A stretch of DNA of 64,000 nt from Candidatus Woesearchaeota archaeon (GCA_035363095.1 DAOSEK010000001.1:17233-81232), one strand, 5' to 3'; counted from the stretch's first letter, positions 4,202 to 35,155 are shown. Numbers and translations are program-made. The notes: a model not told the origin generated them from the letters alone.

Positions 4202-4544
4202 TTTCCCTCGTTTTTTTCTTAAACAAGTAATATTTAGGGGTAATTTAATCCATTTATAAAAATTTCTATAAAAAATATTGAAATTATAATATAAATTTTA
4301 AATTTATAGAGGAGAAAGCGTAGGGATTAAAGATATTTTTGTTTTGGGATTATATTTTTTAATAGGTTTAATAATTATTCCAATAAATTATTCCCATATT
4401 ATAAGGTATAAGGTTTTTCTATAAGGTATAAGGTTTTTCAATGGGATTAGAATTTATTAGGATATCAAAGTATAAATAAAATAAAAAAAAGAAGAAACCA
4501 ATGCATAGGAAGGAAACGTGTTTTTAAGATTAAATCCAGAATAG

Positions 4545-7500
4545 ACTATTGGTGGTCGCATGCTGAATGTCTCGCGTGAGCTTGACACTTACACACCGAC
4601 TCCATCAAACGGGTCTTCTTCCCGTGTCCTAAGTCTCTTTTCTAGGTGGGCTTCGTACTTAGATGCTTTCAGTACTTATCCCTTAAGGCGTAGCTGCCCG
4701 GCGTGCCTTGTCAGACAACCGGTAGACCAGAGGCCTCGGTTCCCCGTTCCTTTCGTACTAGAGGATCCTTCCTATCAGACTATTTCGCACTTCCAGTAGA
4801 TATTAAACCAACTGCCTCACAGCGTTGTGAACCCAGCTAACGATCCCTTTTAATGGGTGAACACCCCCACCCTTGGTCGCTTCTGCACGACCAGGATAGG
4901 AAGAGCCGACAGCGATGTAGCAAGCCTAGCCGTCGATATGAACTCTCGGGCTAGACAACTCTGTTATCCCCGGAGTAACTTTTCGGTCATCTCTATCCCC
5001 CATCAAGGAGATATAGAGGTTCGCTAGACCAGACTTTCGTCTCTGGATCCGTTCATGTTCGGGATCCAGTCAAGCTGGCTTATGCTCTTGCACTCAACTT
5101 CGGATTTCCAACCCGAATGAGCCAACCTTTGGGCTCCACTGATACCTTTTCAGCGGAGGACCACCCCAGTCAAACTGTCTATCAATGGGTGTCTTAGATT
5201 TCTCTAGTTAGTGGGGTAAGCTCTGAAGGGTGGTTTCTCAACTTTTGTCTACACTTGACCTAGCGACCAAGCTTTAGCAACTCCCACCTAGCCTGCACAT
5301 CAAAACTCACTCCACAGCCACAGACTACAGTAAAGTTTCACGGGGTCTTCACGTCCCACTGGAAGACACTGGCCTTTACACCAGTAAAGAGAGTTCAGGG
5401 GATTCTAACCGGGGACAGTGGGGGCCTCGTTACGCCATTCATGCAAGTCGCCATTTAAACGACAAGGTATTACGCTACCTTAAGAGAGTTATAGTTACTC
5501 CCGCCGTTTACCAGCTCTTAGCTCCGTTGAACCGAAGTTTGAAGTACTGGCACTGGGCAGACTTCACCAACTATACAAATCCTTTCGAATTAGCAGTTAG
5601 CTATGTTTTTGTTAAACAGTCGGACCCCCCTAGTCACTGAGCCCTGAAATCGCATTCTTAAGAAAACAATCACAGGGACCCCTTATCCCTAAGTTACGGG
5701 GCCAATTTGCCGAATTCCCTCGATTAGATTATATCCCTCACGCCTTGGGCTACTCACCCAGGGGCACCTGTGTCGGTTCTCGGTATGGTTACTTAGAATC
5801 TATGTAAATTCCCTTTTCACTGTCTCCTGGGCTCAGCCTAACAACCATAAGCTGCTCATCGAACATTTAGTTTTTTTCTCATCGTTACGATACTCGAAAA
5901 ACATGTTGTTCTTGAATCAAGCGACGGCTTGACTAGACCTACCCTGAAGAGTCAGAAATTTACCTTTCGTTACCGCAAATATCTAAGTAGTACAGGAATA
6001 TTAACCTGTTTCCCTTTCCCGGGATTGCCAGTTAGGCATCCGGTTAGGACCAACTAACCCTTGACTGATTTGCATTGTCAAGGAACCCTAGCCCTTTCGG
6101 CGACAGGGACTCTCACCCTGCTTAGATCCTACTACCGCCAAGATTCTCATTTAAACAAGGTCCACACCCTCTTACAAAGATGCTTCTGCCCTTGCAAAAC
6201 GCCAGTCTACAACGAAGCTTTTGGCTTGTCTATGGTATCGGTAACTGATTTAGCCCCGTCCATCTTCAGGGCTTATTGCCTCGAAGGGTAAGCTGTTACG
6301 CACTTTTTAAAGGATGGCTGCTTCTAAGCCAACCTCCTCTTTGTCTTAGGCAATAAACACCTTTCACCCTTTAACACTTAACCAGTATTTAGGGACCTTA
6401 ACCATAGTCTGGGTTGTTCCCCTCTCGCAATACAAGCTTATCCCGTATTGCCTTCTCTTGGAATCTAAGGCTCATGGCACATTCGGAGTTTGACAGAAAA
6501 CCGAGGGATTTCTCCCCCTAAATCCCCTATCAGTATCTCTACAGCGCCTGACACCTCCTCCAAGGCTTGACTACCGCCAATTTCGACTGGAACCAGCTAT
6601 TCCCGCACTCGATTGGCTTTTTACCCCTACACCCAGGTCAGAAGAACGCTTGTACACAGAACCTCTGCAGGCCTCCACGAGGTTTTACCCCCGCTTCACC
6701 TTGCCCAGGCGTAGATCGTGCGGCTTCGGGTCAAACCCTTGTGACTTCGGGCACATTAATACCCAGTCCCTTACTTTATCAGCTGCGGACTTTTCGGTTT
6801 CCCTACGAGTGCTCTGTGAAAACAGATTACTCTCGCCACAAAAGTATACTCCTTGGCACGTTATTCGAAACGGACGACAGAACACATTACGTGCCCTGTC
6901 GAGGTATAACCATCAGGTTTCAGGTTCTTTTAACTCCCTATCAAGGGTTCTTTTCAACGTTCCCTCACGGTACTATTCGCTATCGGTCTTGAAATGTGTT
7001 TAGGGTTGGAGGTTGATGCCCCCCGTCTTAACGCCTAATTTCCAATAGACGCTACTCTTGGACTCACTAGATTCTTGTTCAGTTACTCATACGGGACTTT
7101 CACCCTCTATGGTATCCCTTTTCCAGAAAATTTCTGATTCCCAAATATCAAGAATACGAAAGTGGCCAACACCACATCTCTGATATATTGCTATACCAGA
7201 TTCAGTTTGCCCTTAAACCGTTTTCGGTCGCCCCTAATAACGGCATCCCAATTGGTTTCTTTTCCTGCGGGTACTAAGATGTTTCAATTCCCCGCGTTCC
7301 CCCTTCTTTCGAAGTATCCTTAAAGGATATGAAGTCACATTAGGAAATCTCCGGTTCAATGTTTGCATGCAACTCGCCGGAGCATATCGCAGCTTGCCAC
7401 GTCCTTCTTCAGCATTTCAAGCCTAGTCATCCACCTGATGGCGTAGTAGGATTAATCTCTACGCTTCCTTCCTATGCACGGCCTCATCAACATGACTTAA

Positions 7501-7560
7501 GTGATATTTAAGCCAAAGCCAAATTTGGGTAATTTGGCATCTTAGCCCTTGATCCGGCAT
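4545..7560 (-). rRNA. rrl: 23S (large subunit) ribosomal RNA, boundaries approximate
   Basis: On the reverse complement there is a GC-rich, stop-codon-dense stretch of ~3 kb with conserved LSU segments. The 3' region reads ...GATGGAGTCGGTGTGTAAGTG... (compare E. coli GATAGGCCGGGTGTGTAAGCG). It lies downstream of tRNA-Ala in the archaeal 16S-tRNAAla-23S arrangement. The ORFs the track lists inside it are spurious. Confidence 0.85.
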
Positions 7561-7667
7561 AATAGATATGCCGAACTGCATTTTCAAATAAGCATCATCC
7601 AAAGTAATTCTGGACGATACCATATGATACATTGAAAACATAATTTGTTGAAAACATTAACTTTAAA

Positions 7668-7740
7668 TGGACCCGTCGGGATTCGAACCCGAGGCCTCCG
7701 CCTTGCAAGGGCGGCGCTCTACCAGCTGAGCTACAGGCCC
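7668..7740 (-). tRNA. tRNA-Ala (anticodon TGC) in the 16S-23S spacer
   Basis: The reverse complement reads GGGCCTGTAGCTCAGCTGGTAGAGCGCCGCCCTTGCAAGGCGGAGGCCTCGGGTTCGAATCCCGACGGGTCCA. It has a 7-bp acceptor stem with a G3-U70 pair, anticodon loop CTTGCAA and T-loop TTCGAAT. CCA is not encoded. Confidence 0.9.
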
Positions 7741-7920
7741 GTCTTTGCTTAGCGTATCAGCCTAATTGCTTAGTCCAAATCGCTAGGTAATTTGATTATG
7801 ATTTTTGTAAAATTTCTAAAAATATGAATAAAGGCTGCTTTAAGATTAATTTTATCATATTTTTCATCTAACTGATGATTGTATGAATTTTTTATTTTGC
7901 AAATTTAATTTTGAAAATAA

Positions 7921-9394
<1,474 letters not shown>

Positions 9395-9636
9395 AAGTTT
9401 TTTAGTCGCAAAGCTAATTTATTAGAAATCTTAAAGCAGCCTGATTCATACTTAACGAAAAAAGTTAAGCATACATAGACCCCGAACAAAAATATTTGCT
9501 ATGAAACTTGGTGGCGATAATTGTCGAGTAATTGTAGGGGAATCTTGTCCCATTTATAAACGTTTCGATTGGAAGATGTTTTATTTTAAAAGCTAATTTA
9601 ATGAAATTTTTTAAAATTGGAGTTTAATTTATTAAT

Positions 9637-9896
9637 GAAAAACCTCAGCATAAATGCCTGGGTATCTCGTGAATATTCGAGATTAATCCTTGCATGAATC
9701 AGTCTATTCTTACTTTAGCTTGAAAAATCAATAACCTTACCCTAACAGGCGAGGTATGTTGGTAATATGAAAGCATGCGCTGTATTAAAGCGAGGTTGTT
9801 GATTACAAAAAAGCGTACCAAGCCCTCTTATTGAAACACGAGGTATGCTTTTCTATTGACCAATGTATGCGAATGAACTGGATTTAATGAAATCAG
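9637..9896. repeat. Composite structured intergenic repeat, arranged A1(+)-B(+)-C(+)-A2(+)
   Basis: The first half of module A (gaaaaacctcagcataaatg...gcatgaatcagtctattc) is followed by module B (a ~75-bp element with 12-bp terminal inverted repeats, aaccttaccc...gcgaggttgttgat). Module C follows (acaaaaaagcgtaccaagccctc...acgaggtatgcttttctatt), then the 3' part of module A (caatgtatgcgaatgaactggatttaatgaaat). The same arrangement occurs in reverse at 14944-15207. Confidence 0.8.
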
Positions 9897-9996
9897 AATA
9901 TAGATTTAATTATTTTGAGATTTTTATTTCTCGACTTAAATAATGGATATTTTATTCTAGAAACTTGTTAATCTCATAATTCACAGATAAGTGATA

Positions 9997-10066
9997 AGTT
10001 ATTTCATACTAAGTTATTTCATACTAGGTTATTTCATACTAGGTTATTTCATACTAAGTGATTTCA
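9997..10066. repeat. Tandem direct repeat, 4 x 17 bp (gttatttcatactaRgt), followed by degenerate gatttca-containing copies
   Basis: The array can be read directly between 9998 and 10065. Related half-units (gtgatttcacaaaatgatttcagaataagcgatttcaaat) follow to ~10100. An AT-rich degenerate repeat zone (ttaatgatattt...) lies at 10120-10200. Confidence 0.8.
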
Positions 10067-10315
10067 CAAAATGATTTCAGAATAAGCGATTTCAAATAAT
10101 TCGAACCAATTTATGCTATATATATATTAATGTTATTAATGATATTTGTATTAATGATATTTATGTTAACAATATTTATGTTAATAATTCTTAATAAATA
10201 CGGATTGATTTAGAATGGGAGGGCTTTTTAAATAGGAGATTTGTCTGATTAGTTCTTTTGTTGGGTTGTTTTGATGAGTTGTTTTGATTAATTCCTTGTT
10301 AAATAAATTCTTATG

Positions 10316-12040
10316 TTAGTAGGTTCTTTTGTAATATTTAGTATGGAGTAGGTTATGAGCAATTTCACTTCCAGGCTTTTTTAGATATTCAGAATATAGT
10401 TTTTTTATCTGTGGATTTTCATGGCATTTTCTGATTGGGTTTTTTGAGTCATTTTGATATATTGCTTTTGCTCTGGCTAAAATTATTTCTTCGCTAGAAG
10501 GTATAGGCTGACCTCCACCACCTATACAACCGTGAGGGCAGGCCATTATTTCTACAAAATCAAGCTCGATTTTTTTTGATAAAATCATTTCAATTAGTTC
10601 TTTTGCTTTTGAGAGTGTATTTATGCTTGCAAATCTTAACAATTTTTCGTTAAGGTTTATTTCACCGTATTTTGATTGGGTGAATTGACGTAATTCTTTG
10701 AATTCTATTTTTTCTAAGGGTTTTCCTGTTGCAGATTCGTAAGCTGTCCTTAATGATGCTTCCATTACTCCTCCACTTGAGCCAAAGAGAGTTCCAGCCC
10801 CAGAAGATCTGCCTAATGGATTGTCAAATAGAGAGTCTAAAAGTATTGGAAAGTTTATTCCAGCACCTCTTATCATTCTTCCAAGTTCTCTAGTTGTTAG
10901 AGAATAGTCTACCTGCCCTTTAACTTCAGGTCTTGCGATATCAAATTTTTTTGATAGGCAAGGCATTATTGAAACTAAAACTATATTTTTAGAATCTATC
11001 CCTATTACTTCTGAGAAATAAGTTTTAACGATACTTCCAAGCATTTGATGTGGGCTTTTACAGGTTGAAAGATTTGGTATTAGGAAATGATATGAGTCTT
11101 CAACCATCTTTACCCAAGATGGACAGCAAGATGTAAACATTGGAAGGGGATTGTTTGATTTATTAGATAACCGTTCTAATAATTCGTTTGCCTCTTCGAT
11201 TATTGTTAAATCAGCCCCAAGTTCGGTATCAAATATATAATCAAATCCAAGCATCTTAAGAGCGGTTGGGATTTTTCCAGTCACTATAGTTCCAAAAGGC
11301 ATGCCAAATTCTTCGCCTAATGAAACTCTTATTGATGGTGCAACCTGTGCAATCACTATTTTCTTTTTGTCGTTTATTGCTTTTAATACGTTATCAATAT
11401 CGCTTTTTTCTTCAAGAGCACAAGTTGGGCAGTTTATTACACACTGGCCACAATGGGTACAATTGGTCTGGATTATAGTTTTGTTAAATGCTGGACCAAC
11501 TTCAAAATTTCCGCCTTTGTTTCGATAATCAATACAATCAATATCCTGCAACTGATCACATACCTGAACACAAAGTCCACACTTTATACAACGTGAAGGA
11601 TTTTTGATAAAGGCGGGTGATGAGTCATCTATTTTTGTAAATGAATAAGAAGTTTTTTCGTCAGGAACATTGTAATAAGGGGTGATTGATAGGTTTAGTT
11701 CATTTGCATAGGCTAAAAGTTTGCAATCTATCATCTTATTGCAAAGTAAACAATCAGATTGGTGATCAGATATCAAGAGTGCAAGATTTGTTTTTCTTGC
11801 TTGAATAACTTTTTGGGAGTTAGTGTTAATAACCATTCCTTCTTGGATATATGTAGAGCAGGCGGTTAGGAGATTTTCTCTGCCAACTACCTCTACAACA
11901 CAAAGTCTGCATGCTGCTCTAGGTTCTAATTTTTCATGATAACAAAATGTTGGGATTTCAATTCCCACTTTTTTAGCAGCATCAAGTATTGTAAGTTTTT
12001 CATTAAATTCATAATCCAGTTCATTTATTATTACTCGCAA
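10316..12040 (-). CDS. hydA: [FeFe]-hydrogenase catalytic subunit (H-cluster domain with N-terminal 2Fe-2S and multiple 4Fe-4S ferredoxin domains)
   Basis: The H-cluster motifs are present: L1 (FTSCCPSW), L2 (IMPCLSKKFD) and L3 (EIMACPHGCIGGGGQP). There is an N-terminal plant-type 2Fe-2S Cys pattern (CYHEKLEPRAACRLC). Two CxxCxxCxxxCP motifs are present (CIKCGLCVQVCD and CTHCGQCVINCP). Confidence 0.85.
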   Translation of the reverse strand: MRVIINELDYEFNEKLTILDAAKKVGIEIPTFCYHEKLEPRAACRLCVVEVVGRENLLTACSTYIQEGMVINTNSQKVIQARKTNLALLISDHQSDCLLCNKMIDCKLLAYANELNLSITPYYNVPDEKTSYSFTKIDDSSPAFIKNPSRCIKCGLCVQVCDQLQDIDCIDYRNKGGNFEVGPAFNKTIIQTNCTHCGQCVINCPTCALEEKSDIDNVLKAINDKKKIVIAQVAPSIRVSLGEEFGMPFGTIVTGKIPTALKMLGFDYIFDTELGADLTIIEEANELLERLSNKSNNPLPMFTSCCPSWVKMVEDSYHFLIPNLSTCKSPHQMLGSIVKTYFSEVIGIDSKNIVLVSIMPCLSKKFDIARPEVKGQVDYSLTTRELGRMIRGAGINFPILLDSLFDNPLGRSSGAGTLFGSSGGVMEASLRTAYESATGKPLEKIEFKELRQFTQSKYGEINLNEKLLRFASINTLSKAKELIEMILSKKIELDFVEIMACPHGCIGGGGQPIPSSEEIILARAKAIYQNDSKNPIRKCHENPQIKKLYSEYLKKPGSEIAHNLLHTKYYKRTY

Positions 12041-12168
12041 ATAAACACCTTTTTTTGATTGAATATCTTATTTTTTGAATTTTTATTTCGTTTTTTCTCT
12101 ATTTCTTACTATATTATTTTTTTATATTATTATACTTCATATCGTTATTTTTTATAATATTATTTTTT

Positions 12169-14328
12169 TTAATTAACTTCTTTTCCGGTCATATCTACTT
12201 TTATTATTGAATTTATAGGACATGATTGAACGCATTTTCCGCAATGAATGCATTTGTCTTGGAGTATTATGTGTTTTTTTCCTGTTTGACCATAGATAGC
12301 GTTCACAGGACAAACTGAATAACAATTATGGCAACCTATACAGCTATCAATTATTTTGTATGTGATTTTTGATTTGGCTACTTTTGATAGATATTCATCT
12401 TTAAAATATTTTAATGAGGACAGTATTGGGTTTGGAGCGGTTTGACCTAAACCGCAAAGGGAGTTTTCCTTTACATAATGTGCGAGTTTCTCTATTTTTT
12501 GGATATCCTGAATTGAACCATCTTTTGATATGATTCTTTCAAGCATATATTTCATTTGCCTAGTTCCTTCTCTACAAGGGGTACATTGGCCACAGCTTTC
12601 TTTTGATGTAAAATCCAAGAAATAATGGGCGAGTTCTAATATGGAGTTTGTTTCATCAAGCACTATCATTCCACCACTTCCAACTATTGAACCGGCTTCT
12701 TTTAATGATTCATATCCTATTTTGAGATTTTTAAGTGAATAGGGGATACAACCTCCAGAAGGACCTCCCGTCTGTATTGCTTTTATGTGACTGCCGTTAA
12801 GAGAACCACCACCTATTTTTTCGATAATTACTGATAATTTTTCACCGAAATTTACTTCGATGAGACCTGTGTTTTTTATGTTGCCACTTAGTGCTAAGAC
12901 TAGGGTGCCACCTGAATTTTCATCTCCTAATTCTGAAAACCATTCTGCACCATTTTTTAGGATTAGAGTTACGCAACAATATGTTTTTACATTGTTTATG
13001 TTTGTTGGCATTGAATATATTCCTTGACTTGCAGGATAAGGTGGTCTTGGTCTTGGATTGCCTCTATTTCCCTCAATTGAATGGATTAGTGCAGTTTCTT
13101 CACCGCATACAAATGCACCTGCGCCACTCATAAGTTGAAGATCAAAATCAAAACCTAAGTTTAATACGTTTTCTCCAAGAAATCCTCTTTCATACATGGT
13201 TTGAATGGCTTTTTTAAGGGTTGACTCTGCTAAAGGGTATTCTTTTCTTAGGTAGATGAAGCCTTTTTTCGCGCCTGTTACGAAAGCACAGATTAGCATA
13301 CCCTCAAGTAGTAAGTAAGGGTTACTTTCAAGAATGCCTCTATCCATGAATGCACCAGGGTCGCCTTCATCGGCATTACATACGATGTATTTTAAGGGTA
13401 TTATGCGATTGTTATCAATTTTATTTGGATTTGTTTTTGAAGTGTTATCTGGTGTGTTGTTTAAATCGTTATTTGAAGGAAGTTTTGCATCTTTTAGTAA
13501 CCTCCATTTTTTTGCTGTTGGGAATCCAGCGCCTCCTCTTCCTCTCAGTTTTGATTTTTCTAGGTTTAATAGAGTTTTTTCGCTTCCTTCAAATACTGCG
13601 TTTTTAAGGCCTATAAAACCACCTAGATGAATATATTCTTCAAGGTTTAAGGGATTGATAAAGCCACAATCTTTTAGTATCACCCTGTTTTGATGTTTGA
13701 AAAAAGGTATATCGGCAAAGTAGGGATATGATTTTTTTTCATCTGAGAATGTTTTTTCTGAGAGTATTTTGTTGTCTATGATCGAAGCGATAATAGAACT
13801 TGCATCACTTGGTTTGAGATGACAGTAGAATATGTTTTGTGGTTGTATTATTGCCGTTGGACCTACTTGACAAAAGCCATGACACCCAGTCTGTTTGATT
13901 TGGATGGAAATTTTTTTTGAGTTTAGAAGGGATTTGTTTTCAATTATTGTTTTTTTTATTGCAGAAATTATGTCTAATGAATCGCGGGATTTGCAACCCG
14001 TTGCCCCACAAACACAGATGGTGTATTCGCTTATGGTATGTTTTTTTGTTATATTCTTTTTTGATGTATTTTCTTTTGAACTAGGTTTTTTTATATGAGA
14101 TTTTTTTATATGAGGGCTTTTTGTTCTTTTGATTTTTTTTGTTGTGTTTTTAATCGCAAGGGTATCAGTGACAAGGGTATTAGTGATTGGGTTATTATTA
14201 GGATTATTAGGATTAGTATTATTAGCATTATTATTATTAGGAGTAGTATTATTAGTTACTGGATCACTAGTTAAAGTTTTTAATTTTGTTGTTTTCTTTT
14301 TTTGATTTTTGTTTTTTGGGTTTTTCAT
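12169..14328 (-). CDS. hydB: NuoF-like flavoprotein subunit of a bifurcating-type hydrogenase (HydB), with an N-terminal low-complexity extension
   Basis: A thioredoxin-like 2Fe-2S domain is present (ICVCGATGC...CHGFCQVGP). An NADH/FMN-binding 51-kDa-type core follows (GRGGAGFP, GAGAFVCGEETALIHSIEG). A 4Fe-4S site (ESCGQCTPCREG) and two C-terminal ferredoxin motifs (CIGCHNCYSVCP and CIHCGKCVQSCP) are present. The first ~100 aa are N/T/P/K-rich low complexity. The start codon overlaps the hydC stop by 4 bp (ATGA). Confidence 0.8.
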   Translation of the reverse strand: MKNPKNKNQKKKTTKLKTLTSDPVTNNTTPNNNNANNTNPNNPNNNPITNTLVTDTLAIKNTTKKIKRTKSPHIKKSHIKKPSSKENTSKKNITKKHTISEYTICVCGATGCKSRDSLDIISAIKKTIIENKSLLNSKKISIQIKQTGCHGFCQVGPTAIIQPQNIFYCHLKPSDASSIIASIIDNKILSEKTFSDEKKSYPYFADIPFFKHQNRVILKDCGFINPLNLEEYIHLGGFIGLKNAVFEGSEKTLLNLEKSKLRGRGGAGFPTAKKWRLLKDAKLPSNNDLNNTPDNTSKTNPNKIDNNRIIPLKYIVCNADEGDPGAFMDRGILESNPYLLLEGMLICAFVTGAKKGFIYLRKEYPLAESTLKKAIQTMYERGFLGENVLNLGFDFDLQLMSGAGAFVCGEETALIHSIEGNRGNPRPRPPYPASQGIYSMPTNINNVKTYCCVTLILKNGAEWFSELGDENSGGTLVLALSGNIKNTGLIEVNFGEKLSVIIEKIGGGSLNGSHIKAIQTGGPSGGCIPYSLKNLKIGYESLKEAGSIVGSGGMIVLDETNSILELAHYFLDFTSKESCGQCTPCREGTRQMKYMLERIISKDGSIQDIQKIEKLAHYVKENSLCGLGQTAPNPILSSLKYFKDEYLSKVAKSKITYKIIDSCIGCHNCYSVCPVNAIYGQTGKKHIILQDKCIHCGKCVQSCPINSIIKVDMTGKEVN

Positions 14329-14810
14329 TTTTTATTTAGAGAATGTTTTTTTAGTATATCTTTTATTTTCTCTTTGTTTAGGTTTCCATATATTTTTCCA
14401 TTTATCATTGCAACGGGTGCAAGTGCACAAGCTCCAAGGCATCTTACTTCCTGAAGAGAAAATGCTAAGTCTTTTGTGGTTTCTCCAAGTTTTATTCCAA
14501 GTTCGGTTTCAAATATTTTTATTATTTCAAGACTGCCTTTCACTCTACAAGCAGTCCCATCACAGACTTGAATTGATATTTTTCCGTTTTTTTGAAAACT
14601 AAAGTAGCTGTAAAATGATAGTATGCTAAATATTCTTGATAGGGGAATTTTTAATTCTGTTGAGATGAAGTCTGCATCATCTGGGGATACAAATCCCTGT
14701 TTTTCTTGAATTTCTATTAGTAAAGATAATAGGTTTAGCCTTTTTTGTTTAGTGTGATTGTGTACTATTGTTTTAACCTCATTTGAGATGTTTGTGTTTA
14801 AATTTGTCAT
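14325..14810 (-). CDS. hydC: NuoE-like thioredoxin-fold [2Fe-2S] subunit (HydC)
   Basis: The 161 aa ORF has the NuoE/HoxE Cys pattern (CDGTACRVKGS...CLGACALAPVAMINGKIYG). It is translationally coupled to hydB. Confidence 0.75.
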   Translation of the reverse strand: MTNLNTNISNEVKTIVHNHTKQKRLNLLSLLIEIQEKQGFVSPDDADFISTELKIPLSRIFSILSFYSYFSFQKNGKISIQVCDGTACRVKGSLEIIKIFETELGIKLGETTKDLAFSLQEVRCLGACALAPVAMINGKIYGNLNKEKIKDILKKHSLNKK

Positions 14811-14943
14811 GATGTATCCTTCTTTGGGTGCTGATTTTTTATTTTTGTTAATTTATTGTAAAAAGGTTTTTTATGAATTTTTCAAAGATTTTAAATAGAT
14901 TTGAAATTCAATTGTGAATTAGTTTGAAACTCTAAATTAGTTT

Positions 14944-15207
14944 GATTTCATGAAATCCTAGTTCATTTTGTATACTTTGGTTAATAGAAAAGCATACCGC
15001 GTGTTTCAATAAGAGGGTTTGGTACGCTTTTTTGTAATCAACAACCTAGCTTTAATACAGTGCATGTTTTTATATTACCTATATGCCTCGCCCTTTAGGG
15101 GGAGGTTGTTGATTTTTCAAGCAAAAAGGTTGAATGAACGGATTCACATAACCTTTAACCTCAATTATTCGCGGGATACCTCGATATGTATGCCAATTTT
15201 TTTCATT
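14944..15207. repeat. Composite structured intergenic repeat, arranged A2(-)-C(-)-B(-)-A1(-)
   Basis: This is the reverse-complement arrangement of the 9637-9896 locus. It reads gatttcatgaaatcc...catactttgg (A 3' part), aaaagcataccgcgtgtttcaataagagggtttggtacgctttttt (C), atcaacaacct...ggaggttgttgat (B, with perfect 11-bp terminal inverted repeats) and ttttcaagc...gaatgaacggattcacat...acctcgatatgtatgcc...ttttcatt (A 5' part). Confidence 0.8.
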
Positions 15208-15525
15208 ATGATTTTGTACTAATGTTTATTTTCCTTTTAATGTTACCTAAATTTGACTGTGTTGATATTTAGTTGAGTGTATAATTTGATTGTAAAGATA
15301 CTATTAAATGAAGTAATGTATAGACCACTACGTTTTATCCTGAAAACAAGATTATTTAAAGCTTTTTATTTTAAAATCTAATAAAAAAGTGCACTAAAAG
15401 AGTGTTTTTTCTATTTTGTTTAGTTTCATTTGTTCTTTTGGATATTGTTCTTGAATATTTTGTTTTAATGTGAGCATAACCAGTTTGTCGAGTAGAGCAT
15501 ATTAGATAAAAAAATGAGGAAAATA

Positions 15526-15860
15526 TATGTTGAGAAGAGAAAGGTAGGGTAAATGAAAAGGTGTTGAGGAAAGAAATATAAGTTGAGTTAAGAGATGTTG
15601 AGAAAAGAAAGATAGGGTAAATGAAGAGATGTTAAAGATAGAGATATAAGTTGAGTTAAGAGATGTTGAGAAAAGAAGTATAGGGTAAATGAAGAGATGT
15701 TAAAGATTGAGATATAAGTTGAGTTAAGAGATGTTGAGAAAAGAAGTATAGGGTAAATGAAGAGATGTTAAAGATTGAGATATAAGTTGAGTTAAGAGAT
15801 GTTGAGAAAAGAAAGATAGGGTAAATGAAGAGATGTTGAGGTAAGAAATGTAAAGTAAGG
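15526..15860. repeat. Tandem direct repeat (minisatellite-like), ~4.5 copies of a 67-69-bp unit built from two ~34-bp half-units sharing aagagatgtt
   Basis: Units start at ~15580, 15649, 15717 and 15784 (aagttgagttaagagatgttgagaaaagaaRKatagggtaaatgaagagatgttaaagatWgagatat). A partial copy lies upstream and another downstream. Stop codons occur in all frames. There are no interspersed unique spacers, so this is not CRISPR. Confidence 0.85.
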
Positions 15861-16003
15861 AAATTTATACACCTTCAAAAAACATATAGCTTCAAAAGGA
15901 ATAGATTAAGACAAGTATGAAATAATGTTTTTGTTGTGCGCAAAGTTAGGGATACTTGCAAATAGAAAGAGATAAATATTATTAGAAAAAATGCTTTGGT
16001 AAT

Positions 16004-17203
16004 ATGTTGATAGGCATTGTAGGAAAACCAAATGTTGGGAAATCGACTTTTTTTAAGGCTTCGACTTTAGCGGATGTTTATATTGCGAATTTTCCGTTTG
16101 CAACAATTAAGCCCAATCATGGGGTAGGCTTTGTCAAGGTTAAATGTGTTGATGAGTTTTTTAATGTGCAATGCATGCCTAAACATGGATATTGTATTAA
16201 TCATAACAGGTTTGTTCCGATTGATATGATTGATGTTGCTGGTCTTGTTCCCGGAGCTTTTGAAGGTAAGGGAATGGGTAATCAATTCTTGGATGATTTA
16301 AGGCAAGCGGATGCTTTAGTTCATATTATTGATGCTTCAGGAAGCACTAATGAGAAAGGAGAGAGTGTAGAAATTAATTCTTATGACCCTGCAAATGATA
16401 TTCGATTTTTGGATACAGAGATTGATATGTGGTTTTTAGGGATTTTTAAGAAGGTTTGGAGTAGGTTTTCAAGGCAGGTTATGCAGGAACATGAGGAGAT
16501 TTCTAAGGCCATTGCAAAACAGTTTACTGGGCTTGGTGCTGATGAGGATATGATTAAAGATATTGCTAATTCTTTGTCTTTGAAAGAGAAGGCTATTACT
16601 TCTTGGAGTGATGAGGATCTTAGCAGATTTGTTAAAGAAATTAGAAGGAGAACTAAGCCGATGGTAATTGCTGCAAATAAGGCAGATACACCTTGTGCAA
16701 TGGAGAATATTGAGAGGCTTAGAAAAGAGTTTTCGGATTATAAGATCATTCCATGCTCAAGTGAGGCTGAACTTGCTTTAAGAGAGGCAGGGAAAAAAGG
16801 GCTTATTGAGTATATTCCCGGAGAATCAGATTTCAGGATTTTAAAAGAGGATAGTCTTGATGAAAAACAAAAGAGGGCTTTAGAGTTTATTAGAAATTCT
16901 GTTTTGAAAAGGCTTGGCTCTACAGGGGTTCAAGAGATATTAAATACTTGCGTTTTTGATGTTTTAAGATATGTTTATGTTTTTCCAGGGGGAGTTAGTA
17001 AACTTGAGGATCAATACGGAAATGTGCTTCCGGATTGCTTTTTAATGAAACCCGGCTCTACAGCTTTAGATTTTGCATATAAGGTTCATAGTGATATTGG
17101 AGATAATTTTGTAAAGGCGATTGATGTGAAAAAGAAGATGCCTGTTGGAAGAGATTTTGTGCTTTCAAATGGGGATGTTATTGAGATTATGACAAGGAAA
17201 TGA
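16004..17203 (+). CDS. YchF/OLA1-family P-loop GTPase/ATPase (archaeal Ygr210-type with C-terminal TGS-like domain)
   Basis: The N-terminus IGIVGKPNVGKSTFFKASTLADVYIANFPFATIKPNHGV matches the YchF G1 region (GIVGLPNVGKSTLFNALT...ANFPFCTIEPN). A C-terminal TGS-like beta-grasp is present (GDVIEIM). Confidence 0.75.
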   Translation: MLIGIVGKPNVGKSTFFKASTLADVYIANFPFATIKPNHGVGFVKVKCVDEFFNVQCMPKHGYCINHNRFVPIDMIDVAGLVPGAFEGKGMGNQFLDDLRQADALVHIIDASGSTNEKGESVEINSYDPANDIRFLDTEIDMWFLGIFKKVWSRFSRQVMQEHEEISKAIAKQFTGLGADEDMIKDIANSLSLKEKAITSWSDEDLSRFVKEIRRRTKPMVIAANKADTPCAMENIERLRKEFSDYKIIPCSSEAELALREAGKKGLIEYIPGESDFRILKEDSLDEKQKRALEFIRNSVLKRLGSTGVQEILNTCVFDVLRYVYVFPGGVSKLEDQYGNVLPDCFLMKPGSTALDFAYKVHSDIGDNFVKAIDVKKKMPVGRDFVLSNGDVIEIMTRK

Positions 17204-17352
17204 AACAGTATGAGATGGCTTTAAGGTTTATTAGATTTAATAAAAAAATTATCATAATCTTTCGTGCTTTGCCTTTTTAATTTTTGAAATTTTGCGTTTT
17301 AGAGTATCTTAGAGGTTGCCATTTAAAAACTCAACTGTACTACTATTCAAAT

Positions 17353-17482
17353 GAAAAATCTCGGCGTAAATTCCCCAAGTATCTCAGGGATAGTCGAGGT
17401 TAAACGTTATGTTAATCAGTCTAGTCAAACTTTCAGCTTTAAAAATTAACCAAAGTATGGGAATTACAGATTCATATAATTA
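17353..17482 (+). repeat. Degenerate solo copy of repeat module A
   Basis: The copy reads gaaaaatctcggcgtaaat...gatagtcgaggttaaacg...aaccaaagtatgggaattacagattcatataat. It is collinear with module A (gaaaaacctcggcataaatg...gatagtcgaggttaatcc...accaaagtatgcgaatgacggattcatgaaat). It lies in the convergent 3' region between the GTPase and the flaJ-like gene. Confidence 0.65.
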
Positions 17483-24487: not shown

Positions 24488-24623
24488 GTTTCGAGATAAT
24501 ATCTGCTTGTTTAATAATTTATAGCTACTTTAGGGTAGAAAATGTTAAAAAGGATTTTTCATTTTAGTATTATGTTTTTGATACATGATGTTTAATAGGT
24601 TTCTCATACTAAAATTAATATTT

Positions 24624-24753
24624 GATTTCGTGAAATCCAGCATCATTTCGCATACTTTGGTCTGGAGGCCAAAAGTTTGAATAGACGGATTCACATAACG
24701 TTTAACCTCGACTATTCTAAAGATACCTCGCCATTTATGCAAAGGTTTTTCAT
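24624..24753 (-). repeat. Solo full-length copy of repeat module A (reverse orientation)
   Basis: The copy reads gatttcgtgaaatccagcatcatttcgcatactttggtctggaggccaaaagtttgaatagacggattcacataacgtttaacctcgactattctaaagatacctcgccatttatgcaaaggtttttcat. It is the reverse complement of the module A consensus. Confidence 0.85.
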
Positions 24754-24933
24754 TTATTGGTGTTTTGAATATTTAAATATTTCACCATGCTTAATGCAAT
24801 AACAAAAAGATTTATAAATTCACCATTAATTCCAAGTGATAACGTGTGTTATTGAGATTAGAATGTTTATTTAAACATGATATGTTTTAATTAGAATAGA
24901 TGATTTAGAGATTATAAAATTAAGGTTTTGAAA

Positions 24934-29080: not shown

Positions 29081-29401
29081 TTAAAAAAACACCTCCGTGT
29101 TAAAAAACTCTCTTCTACTTTTGTGCGTTTGGTTTGCTAGAAATCCTTGTCCATCCGGTTGCCCATTGATGAACACTAGGTAATAGGATGAAAAAACTAC
29201 TATATAAATCTTTCTGATTTCTTGACGGAAAAATCTGTTTTTTTATTCACTTGACAGTGGTGTTTACGTATTTTTGAGAAGATTTGAAGAGTATATTATT
29301 GGATTTTTTTATTGGATATTTTCGAATAATTACTTTAGTAATAATATCACTTTAGTAATAATATCCAACAAATTTAAAGAATACAAGCAAAAGTTAATAT
29401 A

Positions 29402-29659
29402 ATCAACAACCTCACCCTAAAGAGCGAGGTATGTTGGTAATATAAAATCATACGCTACGTTCAAGCGAGGTTGTAGATTTCATGAAATCCAGCATCACTT
29501 CGCATACTTTGGTCTTTCAAGCCAAAGTGAGAATAGACGGATTCATCCAAGGATTAACCTCGACTATCCTAAAGATACCTCGACATTTATGCCGAGGTTT
29601 TTCATTACAAAAAAGCGTACCAAGTCCTCGTGTTTAAACACGAGGTATGCTTTTCTATT
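29402..29659. repeat. Composite structured intergenic repeat, arranged B(+)-A(-)-C(+)
   Basis: Module B reads atcaacaacctcaccctaaagagcgaggtatgttggtaatat...gcgaggttgtagat. A full module A copy follows in reverse orientation (atttcatgaaatccagc...ccgaggtttttcat). Module C follows, with a perfect central palindrome (acaaaaaagcgtaccaagtcctcgtgtttaaacacgaggtatgcttttctatt). Confidence 0.85.
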
Positions 29660-29726
29660 AATGAAAAACTAGTATGCAGTACAATTGTTCAGAAAAAGAT
29701 TGTGTATAAGCTACAATAACAAAATA

Positions 29727-30675: not shown

Positions 30676-31947
30676 TTAGCCCCACTTTTTTATTGCCAGA
30701 GCTAATTCAGGGTGATTTTGGGCATATTTTTTTAAGGAAATTTTTGATAGGCTTGCGTCAAGTGCCTGTCTTATTGCTTTAGCTCCTTGAGTCGTTCCTT
30801 TAGGATGGCCATGACATCCACCACCAAATTGAAATACTGTGTGAACGCCAAAGATTTTGCATAGTGCGGGGATATGCCCTGGATGAAGTCCGCCTGAACT
30901 TACCGCAAGCGTGGGTTTTATTTTGCTCCAGTCTTCTGTTAGAGATTCCATTTCAATCTTATCGGCCTCAATTTCATTAAATATTATTTTAACTTCGCTT
31001 TCTGAACCTTGCATTTTGCCAACGGCTGTTCCAATATGAACTAAGTCTACTCCTGCAAGTCTTGATATTTTTGCGATTACAAGCATTGAAACACCATGAT
31101 GGGGATTTCTTGTGATTGCGGCATGCATTGCTCTGTGAGCATGGATTATTAGCCCTTTTGAGTTGTTTCTAAGGGTTTGAAGTGCTCCAAAACCAGTTGT
31201 TAGAATATCTACCATAATGGTTTCTCCACCTAAAGATTTTACATAATCAAGACGTTTTAGCATCTCTAAAGATTCTGCAGTAACGTTTGCAAGGTATAGC
31301 TTTTTTTCGCCTGTTTTTTGCTCTGCTTTTCTTTTTTGTTCAAGGGTTTTTTTAATTCTTTCTCTGAATTTGTTAAATGTCATGTTTGTGAGATTTTCAT
31401 CATCTTTTACTATGTCTATTCCACCAACCCACGCGTCGTAGGCTACTTTTGCATGTTCGGTTGCGCTTAGACCCACTTTTGGTTTTATTATTGTTCCTAC
31501 AAATGGACGATTGTATACACCTGTTATTTTTCTAATCCCTTCGATACCATGCAAGGGACCTTTGAATGATTCTATGTACTTTTTTGGGAAGTATATGTTT
31601 TCAAGTCTTAGTGTGTTTAATAATTTCATTCCAAATATGTTTCCGGCAATTGCTGATAGGAGTTGAGGAAGATTGCCTAGTTCGAAAAGCTCAATTGGAT
31701 ATGCAATTTTTATTTTGTATAAATTTTTGGAGATTTTTGTTATTGAATAAACGTGAGGGGATAGTCTTTTTTGTATTGAGCTTGTTAGGGTGTATATGTC
31801 TGTCCATGTGCCTATTGAACTTTCTGCAGCAATTTGTGAGGAAACAGATTCTATTGAGTTTGATTTTGCTTTAGAAACTAAGTAATAACAGATTAGTTCT
31901 TCTTTTTTTGGAATATACTCTAAATCAACGTATTCGAATTTTTTCAT
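30676..31947 (-). CDS. rbcL: Ribulose-1,5-bisphosphate carboxylase/oxygenase large subunit, archaeal form III-like
   Basis: The lysine-carbamate and catalytic loop region is GTIIKPKVGLSATEHAKVAYDAWVGGIDIVKDDENLT. The C-terminus has GGLHPGH and FQFGGGCHGHP. The protein is 423 aa, typical of form III. Confidence 0.85.
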   Translation of the reverse strand: MKKFEYVDLEYIPKKEELICYYLVSKAKSNSIESVSSQIAAESSIGTWTDIYTLTSSIQKRLSPHVYSITKISKNLYKIKIAYPIELFELGNLPQLLSAIAGNIFGMKLLNTLRLENIYFPKKYIESFKGPLHGIEGIRKITGVYNRPFVGTIIKPKVGLSATEHAKVAYDAWVGGIDIVKDDENLTNMTFNKFRERIKKTLEQKRKAEQKTGEKKLYLANVTAESLEMLKRLDYVKSLGGETIMVDILTTGFGALQTLRNNSKGLIIHAHRAMHAAITRNPHHGVSMLVIAKISRLAGVDLVHIGTAVGKMQGSESEVKIIFNEIEADKIEMESLTEDWSKIKPTLAVSSGGLHPGHIPALCKIFGVHTVFQFGGGCHGHPKGTTQGAKAIRQALDASLSKISLKKYAQNHPELALAIKKWG

Positions 31948-34635: not shown

Positions 34636-34647
34636 ATTATTTTTTTG

Positions 34648-35026
34648 ATTTAATGAAATCCTCGCTCATTTGCATACTTTGGTTAATAGAAAAGCATACC
34701 TTGTATTTCAACAAGAGGACTCGGTACGCTTTTTTGTAATGAAAAACCTCGGCATAAATGTCGAGGTATCTTTAGGATAGTCGAGGTTAATCCTTGCATG
34801 AATCCGTCTATTCTAATTTTGGCTTGAAAGACCAAAGTATGCGAATGACGGATTCATGAAATCTACAACCTCTCTGAACGTAGCGTATGCTTTTATATTA
34901 CCAACATACTCGTCCTTTAGGACAAGGTTGTTGATTTTTCAAGCCGAAGTAAGAAAGGAAGCGTGTATGGAGCAAAAGACCTTAACTTCTTGTGAGATAT
35001 CTTGATAGTTATGCCAATGTTTTTAA
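34648..35026. repeat. Composite structured intergenic repeat, triple-nested: A2(-)-C(-)-[A(+) full]-B(-)-A1(-, degenerate)
   Basis: It reads gatttaatgaaatcctcgctcatttgcatactttggttaat (A 3' part, reverse), then aaaagcataccttgtatttcaacaagaggactcggtacgctttttt (C, reverse). A full module A follows in forward orientation (gaaaaacctcggcataaatgtcgaggtatctttaggatagtcgaggttaatccttgcatgaatccgtctattctaattttggcttgaaagaccaaagtatgcgaatgacggattcatgaaat). Then comes B in reverse (atctacaacctc...aaggttgttgat), then ttttcaagccgaag... (A 5' part, reverse, degenerate). Confidence 0.8.
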
Positions 35027-35155
35027 CTTATTTTTGTAGTTGGTTAATAGAGAAGTAAGTATTATGATAATGGCTTTTAATTTTTTTTGGATTAGTTTCG
35101 TAGTGGGTTTTGAAAATGGTTAATTATTTAAACAGATTGTTTTTTTGAACCGTAT

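Follow-up and report, generated by a model that had tools for sequence, protein, structure and literature searches.

A cytosine-free tandem array upstream of a YchF-type GTPase gene in a Woesearchaeota chromosome, probably a single-locus minisatellite

Introduction

A long divergent spacer in the genome of a Candidatus Woesearchaeota archaeon carries a regular tandem array upstream of a YchF-type GTPase gene, and the question that this locus raises is whether the repeats are a functional element or a by-product of DNA turnover. The original prediction, made from the same DNA, offered three answers: an array of regulator-binding sites, iteron-like elements of a replication origin, or a slippage-prone minisatellite. 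Here, the array and its surroundings are analyzed computationally in a 64-kb stretch of DNA (the window, from whose first nucleotide all positions are counted), in related genomes and in metagenome assemblies. According to the results, the array is probably a non-coding minisatellite (VNTR) that is limited to a single locus of a Woesearchaeota (DPANN) chromosome and changes by unequal recombination or slippage.

Results and Discussion

Genomic setting of the array

The window contains a complete 16S-tRNA(Ala)-23S operon on the minus strand (4528-9393), three further tRNAs, aminoacyl-tRNA synthetases and housekeeping genes, which identifies it as archaeal chromosomal DNA. The matches of the GTPase protein among species-representative genomes are almost only DPANN archaeal MAGs, and the specific titles among these matches are Woesearchaeota, Nanoarchaeota or Nanoarchaeia. 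The array is housed in a spacer of 1193 bp between two divergently oriented genes:

14325..14810, minus strand: hydC-like gene for a thioredoxin-type [2Fe-2S] subunit (Pfam PF01257), the first gene of a divergent hydCBA FeFe-hydrogenase operon
16004..17203, plus strand: YGR210/YchF-type Obg-like GTPase gene (Pfam PF08438, PF01926, PF02824), the 3' neighbour of the array

The neighbours of hydC are hydB (PF01512/PF10589) and hydA (PF02906/PF02256); the HydABC-type FeFe hydrogenase with its NuoE/NuoF-like subunits is encoded at 10316-14810, and a RuBisCO large-subunit homologue is encoded at 30676-31947. The 5' part of hydB (minus strand, 12169-14328) contains 15-bp coding tandem repeats at 14157-14255, which encode an N/T/P-rich low-complexity N-terminus. 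A 10-aa in-frame deletion of HydB (709 vs 719 aa) in the contigs L110 and L111 constitutes a second VNTR in the same neighbourhood, and a different 12-bp repeat occupies the position of the 15-bp repeats in the hydB of L011, the nearest species representative.

The array extends from -477 to -138 relative to the YchF ATG. It lies, as was first described, between a composite repeat, a dispersed copy of which is located at approximately 14941-15210, and the GTPase start at 16004. Copies of this composite family (the A/B/C locus) are found at 14941-15210 (+), 9633-9895 (-), 24621-24754 (+) and 17350-17450 (-), with further copies at 34644-34749 and 34857-35038 (+) and at 29401-29482 and 29595-29661 (-). 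They share 70-88% identity, contain GC-rich hairpins with T-runs behind them, and are located in spacers that adjoin the rRNA operon, an S-layer-like gene, rpS3Ae and a peptidase gene, as well as on both sides of YchF. The family occurs in this species only, being absent from L011 and 79 other Woesearchaeota loci, and looks MITE/REP-like; its module B contains a TTTTATATTACC box resembling the promoter of the Lon gene. Additionally, small tandem repeats (a 15-mer repeated 5-7 times, 9-, 15- and 24-mers, and a 13-mer in 3.3 copies) form a cluster at 9994-10288, ahead of the rRNA operon and the TTTATAAAT box that belongs to it, and short tandem repeats are also present at 29296-29365, upstream of the S-layer-like gene.

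Anatomy of the array

The existence of the tandem array is confirmed by TRF, which reports 15527-15837 with a period of 68, 4.6 copies, 94% matches, 0% indels and a score of 524, by far the highest in the 64-kb window (the runner-up scores 123). A second call covers 15527-15849 with a period of 34, 9.5 copies and 68% matches. Written in a 34-nt register, the array consists of ten head-to-tail half-units from 15527 to 15866, which amount to five 68-bp units without indels. The 34-bp half-units of the original prediction are therefore retained, whereas its period of 67-69 bp and its 4.5 copies are replaced by a period of exactly 68/34 bp and five units. The order of half-units in the window allele is A1 B1 A2 B2 A3 B3 A3 B3 A2 Bt, and the in-register listing divides the region as follows:

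15493..15526, plus strand: degenerate leading half-unit TAGAGCATATTAGATAAAAAAATGAGGAAAATAT, whose 3' part (GATA..AAATGAGGA) still resembles the tail of an A unit
15527..15594, plus strand: unit 1 (A1+B1), an older, diverged edge unit with its internal core decayed to AAAAGGTGTT
15595..15662, plus strand: unit 2 (A2+B2), with A2 identical to the ninth half-unit
15663..15798, plus strand: units 3 and 4 (A3 B3 A3 B3), a homogenised centre of two identical 68-bp units
15799..15866, plus strand: unit 5 (a copy of A2 plus the degenerate, B1-like terminal half-unit Bt)

The D1 reference copy begins at 15503. A recurring core every 34 bp had been pointed out, and AAGAGATGTT is indeed found in eight exact copies, all in phase, between 15590 and 15837; exact matches elsewhere in the 64 kb number zero. 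The unit variants quoted earlier are also real, with GAAAGATA in A2 vs GAAGTATA in A3 and AGATAGAG in B2 vs AGATTGAG in B3. A1 and A2 agree at 31 of 34 positions and B1 and B2 at 29 of 34, whereas A and B half-units match at approximately 22 of 34. An alignment of the nine distinct half-units shows variation in 21 of its 34 columns, and the columns TGTT, GA, TA and AA are invariant in every half-unit. The longest exact repeat inside the array is 105 bp, at a shift of 68.

These properties are those of a minisatellite: the units are direct, head-to-tail and within 10-100 bp, as seen in both the TRF calls and the register listing, and the centre is homogenised by an identical duplication of A3B3, whereas the edges (A1/B1, Bt and 15493-15526) are degenerate. 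Because B1 and B2 differ at five of 34 positions and A and B half-units at about twelve, the array is not brand new and has persisted.

The array is non-coding, in agreement with the first reading of it. Each plus-strand frame contains 14-15 stops and each minus-strand frame 2-3, and the minus strand of the array is without G, so that no ATG, GTG or TTG start is possible there. No ORF of at least 50 aa overlaps the array in the ORF scan of the window. A coding reading is ruled out by the stops in six frames together with the lack of a start on the G-free strand.

A cytosine-free run

The base-composition scan reveals a feature that was not remarked upon previously:

15499..15869, plus strand: cytosine-free run of 371 nt

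This is the longest run free of any one base in the window, the next longest being 114 nt, and 80 other Woesearchaeota loci, which total 841 kb, contain no base-free run of 120 nt or more. The plus strand of the array comprises 154 A, 103 G, 83 T and 0 C, and the differences among half-units are of the types A/G (14), G/T (7) and A/T (6), with C involved in none. The plus strand of the window shows a G>C skew almost throughout, intergenic DNA included, in which C amounts to 11.5% and the skew to +0.17.

Amplification of a C-free seed accounts for most of the run, and the total lack of C may represent the extreme of the general G>C bias of the strand. Since 21 of the 34 columns vary without C, intergenic DNA contains C at the frequency given above, and the relatives lack runs of 120 nt or more, a strand-specific mutational or selective constraint seems to be at work and to keep C out of the array. 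Why the exclusion persisted as the units diverged from one another is a minor puzzle of base composition.

Copy number differs among near-identical strains

Contigs encoding the identical GTPase protein number at least 23 and derive from many metagenomes, and the identical HydC is likewise found on at least 23 contigs. Three alleles of the array are distinguished in independent metagenome assemblies, each in at least two of them; these assemblies are presumably short-read, so the absolute copy numbers given below are lower bounds, and mixtures within samples are possible:

4 half-units, A1 B1 A2 Bt: L001, L007 and L107, and the IS-interrupted L005, L006, L008, L009 and L010
10 half-units, in the window arrangement: the window and L002
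11 half-units, in another internal order and with two hybrid units: L003 (NCBI GCA_964620695.1) and L004

The array locus is thus present in many independent assemblies rather than in one, and the comparison of copy number among strains that had been proposed yields 4, 10 and 11 half-units in near-identical strains. L001 differs from the window by 0 mismatches over 3737 flanking bases to the right of the array and is exactly 204 bp (3 x 68) shorter. Its short allele corresponds to the window allele minus everything between the two identical A2 copies, and the sequences of B2, A3 and B3 are absent from it. Unit 1 is unchanged in all array alleles. A copy-number difference in whole units among closely related strains is what defines a VNTR, and both the 4/10/11 series of half-units and the 204-bp pair display it. 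The suggestion of a slippage-prone minisatellite is therefore borne out by three alleles in near-identical strains, by the decayed edges and homogenised centre, and by the lack of the array in L011.

In one strain group, the spacer itself is interrupted at approximately 15370 (15370-15374) by an inserted element, which is seen at the contig ends of L005, L006, L008, L009 and L010 (first ~50-140 nt) and at the 5' ends of L110 and L111. The termini of the element are inverted (ACAGTATCTCCGAT...ATCGGAGATACTGT) and accompanied by a target duplication of 3-5 bp; because the contigs break inside it, the element is likely an IS. It splits a promoter-like block that is conserved with L011.

The array is confined to one locus

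L011, with a YchF that is 96% identical at the amino acid level and a hydC that is ~77% identical at the nucleotide level, keeps the hydABC-YchF synteny, a spacer of 557 bp and the promoter-like blocks, and the array is absent from its spacer. The blocks shared by the two spacers are 15284-15376 and AGAAAGAGATAAATAT just upstream of the ATG, and no array separates them in L011. In the middle of the spacer, conservation with L011 is limited to block 15322-15376 (GACCACT..GTTTTATCC...AAGATTATTTAAAGCTTTTTATTTTA). Its minus-strand sequence, AAAAAGC-TTTAAATA, agrees well with a BRE/TATA element, from which a leftward transcript starting at ~15329 is predicted.

No comparable repeat exists within 1.5-2 kb upstream of YchF in 20 relatives, where the only repeats are small and unrelated; in L013, a purine-rich 21-mer is repeated 2.8 times ~900 bp upstream of YchF in a non-syntenic context. 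A search for the half-unit elsewhere in the genome had been proposed; BLAST of the array against the window and the fetched relative and scan loci (L011 onward) returns only the array's own locus, in contigs of the same species. No related array is found in the 80 other Woesearchaeota loci, whose 841 kb contain only three weak repeats with a period of at least 20 and a length of at least 150. When metagenomes are scanned for pairs of cores at a distance of 34 bp, the array's own locus is recovered once (L101) together with 13 unrelated contigs, many of which are unrelated 34-bp tandem repeats from other organisms, and the same scan of viral sequences gives no match. A literature search for repeats in Woesearchaeota found nothing specific. 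The array is young on the species scale and restricted to one locus in the data searched.

Promoter context and a possible regulatory role

A sigma-70 promoter and terminator scan is uninformative for an archaeon; a TATA-pattern scan, with the pattern derived from the upstream regions of the window's own genes, was used instead and is indicative only. A box of the AAAG-N-TTTATAWA type recurs upstream of window genes and is placed either ~30 nt before the ATG, which is a leaderless spacing, or farther upstream in combination with a GGTG Shine-Dalgarno sequence. In the hydC/YchF spacer, such boxes are located at 14890 (+), 15067 (+), 15864 (+) and 15360 (-), of which that at 15067 falls inside the dispersed repeat and that at 15360 inside the block conserved in L011. 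Two boxes are close to the GTPase gene:

15864..15871, plus strand: TATA-like box TTTATACA from the pattern scan, abutting the last half-unit
15972..15979, plus strand: ATAAATAT box, 32 nt before the GTPase ATG, spaced as in the leaderless-looking genes of the window

The TTTATACA box may act as a distal promoter for the GTPase gene, in which case transcription is predicted to start near 15895. The sequence around the ATAAATAT box, AGAAAGAGATAAATAT, is conserved in L011 (L011 5457-5491, 91% identical).

An arrangement in which the array ends at a TATA-like box raises the alternative that it is a cis-regulatory or architectural DNA element, in which a DNA-binding protein, for example an activator, a repressor or a chromatin protein, would occupy ten direct 34-bp sites cooperatively to tune the promoter of the YchF-type GTPase or of hydCBA, with copy number acting as a strain-level expression dial. 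This alternative is unlikely. The position from -477 to -138, the strict 34-bp spacing, the invariant TGTT, GA, TA and AA columns, and the fact that the units diverged yet stayed in register and C-free are all consistent with it, and the sites of Lrp-type assemblies are ~three helical turns apart. A motif of fixed spacing upstream of a promoter is present in a descriptive sense only (34-bp phase, box at 15864, 138 bp from the ATG). However, 34 bp corresponds to ~3.2 helical turns, so that successive sites would be off one helix face, and the array contains no dyad or palindrome, whereas most archaeal regulators bind dyads. The array is absent from L011 despite the conserved promoter blocks there, and the motif is absent from the orthologous YchF promoter in L011 and 19 further relatives. 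Natural strains carry 4 or 10-11 half-units, which indicates that most sites are dispensable, and the conservation of the core is explained by recent copying of units, given that the old edge units have decayed cores. The motif is also not enriched elsewhere: AAGAGATGTT with one mismatch has 12 matches outside the array in the whole window, compared with ~10 expected by chance, and a regulon motif was rejected on this ground.

A more specific proposal, which we regard as distinctly improbable, is that the array is kept as a strand-asymmetric, structure-free multivalent platform that offers ten phased sites to a putative DNA- or RNA-binding protein and in which the exclusion of C is selected. 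If this proposal is true, the exclusion would, for example, keep a displaced strand or a transcript unpaired, and the gain and loss of units would be a heritable, reversible dial on the promoters of the YchF-type GTPase or the FeFe hydrogenase, an archaeal counterpart of bacterial contingency loci. If the exclusion of C reflects selection, it could point to a role at the protein or RNA level; the present evidence demands none.

Possible transcription of the array

A transcript of the array would be a C-free, purine-rich and structure-free repeat RNA, produced by plus-strand transcription as a 5' leader of the GTPase mRNA or as a separate ncRNA, and it might serve as a platform or sponge for an RNA-binding protein or form R-loops. 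For the downstream GTPase gene, the purine-rich strand serves as the sense strand. The minimum free energy of the 340-nt RNA is -16 kcal/mol for the plus strand and 0 kcal/mol for the minus strand, which suggests that an array RNA would be essentially unstructured from either strand, as sponge and scaffold RNAs with single-stranded sites can be. Loss of C from one strand would also fit deamination of an often displaced non-template strand, and the study of Borg elements floats architectural, repeat-bearing RNAs for intergenic repeats (PMC9879509).

Nevertheless, this reading is very doubtful. No nearby box is directed into the array: the nearest plus-strand boxes are those at 14890 and 15067, and T-runs, which are archaeal termination signals, lie between these boxes and the array at 15196-15202 and 15403-15408. 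Because of this combination, the array is probably promoter-upstream DNA rather than part of a transcript. YchF has its own proximal box at leaderless spacing, the array has no match in Rfam at E values up to 10, it is not conserved in L011, and its copy number varies freely. A known RNA family or a stable RNA is ruled out by the negative Rfam result and the folding energies.

Origin, CRISPR and assembly readings

The prediction that the repeats are iterons of a replication origin (ORB-like), which may be extended to a centromere-like partition site, draws on the many direct repeats in a long AT-rich spacer and can be given only a very small probability. No Orc1/Cdc6, Rep or ParA/ParB-type domain is encoded by the flanking genes or by the 26 window ORFs scanned. 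Every unit is direct, with no inverted repeat or dyad within the array, and because one strand is free of C, a G:C-containing dyad is not possible. The cumulative GC skew does not turn at 14-18 kb, L011 is without the array, the 4-unit allele is viable, and no second copy exists in the window. The cumulative skew climbs from 0 to ~4.2 across the window, and on account of this rise the window seems to lie inside one replichore. At 598-623, two tandem 13-mers (TTTTAAGTGTAAA, TTTCAAGTGTATA) appear mini-ORB-like by eye; this candidate was rejected because its other matches in the window are at the level of chance (9 vs 6.9 expected) and no orc1/cdc6 is present.

The array shares with plasmid iterons, ORB and mini-ORB elements the multiple direct repeats in an AT-rich non-coding region. 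Unlike these elements, it has no nearby initiator gene, dyad core or inverted arrangement; its 34-bp period is out of helical phase, it is not conserved, and its copy number is dispensable. A regular period and a short conserved block that alternates with other sequence are likewise shared with CRISPR arrays. A CRISPR array was rejected, as the conserved block is just 10 bp long, the "spacers" of 24 bp amount to two related sequences in alternation, and a period of 34 bp is shorter than that of any known CRISPR. The window contains no match to a CRISPR-type RNA family, and no Cas-type domain is found among the 26 ORFs scanned.

It is equally improbable that the copy-number differences, or the array itself, are an artefact of short-read assembly: the array, at 340 bp, exceeds a typical read, and the flanks of the 4- and 10-unit contigs are identical, as they would be in two different assemblies of a single strain, but every allele is seen again in independent assemblies, for which different assemblers were used, the variants of the long alleles (B2, A3, B3 and the hybrids) are not derivable from the short allele, and the junction of the short allele requires k-mers of at least 61 that the long allele does not contain, and yet this junction occurs in k141 MEGAHIT contigs, a k value that exceeds the longest exact internal repeat. 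Because of these junction k-mers and the variants missing from the short allele, neither form can be explained simply as the other one misassembled, and collapse as the source of the short allele is judged unlikely from the k-mer analysis. The statement that the array is not the artefact of a single collapsed unit is accordingly upheld, as the array is present in other assemblies and its copy number is strain-dependent, not collapsed everywhere.

Comparison with known repeat systems

Mycobacterial MIRU loci consist of intergenic, non-coding head-to-tail units of tens of bp whose copy number is polymorphic between close strains, and they belong to a family that is scattered over dozens of loci in each genome. 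The array resembles them in its head-to-tail non-coding units, strain polymorphism, degenerate edges and whole-unit steps. In contrast to MIRU, its unit is found at a single locus (in the 64-kb window, the same-species contigs and the metagenome scan), and its composite 34+34 substructure and complete absence of C have no MIRU counterpart.

The intergenic tandem repeats of Borgs, extrachromosomal elements of Methanoperedens, are A-biased and turn over rapidly, with partial repeats at their flanks and units whose length is not a multiple of three, and slippage by the archaeal PolB/PolD has been proposed as their mechanism (PMC9879509). The array is similarly archaeal and intergenic, with an A-rich strand, partial flanking repeats and a unit length not divisible by three, and it is likewise fast-evolving, absent from close relatives and variable in unit number within populations. 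It differs in that Borg repeats are essentially perfect and pervasive on the element, whereas the array is imperfect (94%), contains older diverged units and is solitary. Additionally, it resides on a DPANN chromosome beside rRNA, tRNA and housekeeping genes, and it excludes C totally, whereas the Borg repeats are enriched in A.

A model for the origin and turnover of the array

The gain and loss of units between almost identical strains make an ordinary hypervariable minisatellite the most likely explanation of the array, whose lack of cytosine on one strand is its one unusual property. A purine-rich, C-poor 34-bp segment of the long divergent spacer may have been duplicated to give A and B, and the resulting 68-bp dimer would then have been amplified. 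The array would subsequently expand, contract and reshuffle in the 34/68-bp register through unequal homologous recombination or replication slippage between near-identical units. Recombination between the A2 at 15595 and the A2 of unit 5 would yield the 4-half-unit form exactly, and we infer that the short allele arose in this way. Out-of-register exchange has left direct traces in the 11-unit allele, as its hybrid units, and in the short allele, as the exact A2-A2 deletion, and the identical centre with decayed edges is the usual signature of homogenisation by unequal exchange. The spacer as a whole is plastic, as it carries a copy of the dispersed species-specific repeat and, in some strains, an IS insertion. 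The minisatellite so described appears to have no sequence-specific function beyond, at most, altering how far upstream elements stand from the YchF promoter.

Taken as a plain VNTR, the array calls for caution in that contigs may mis-state its copy number, and it is at the same time usable as a strain marker for this uncultured Woesearchaeota population. It documents the turnover of repeats in whole units in a DPANN chromosome, where such loci appear rare.
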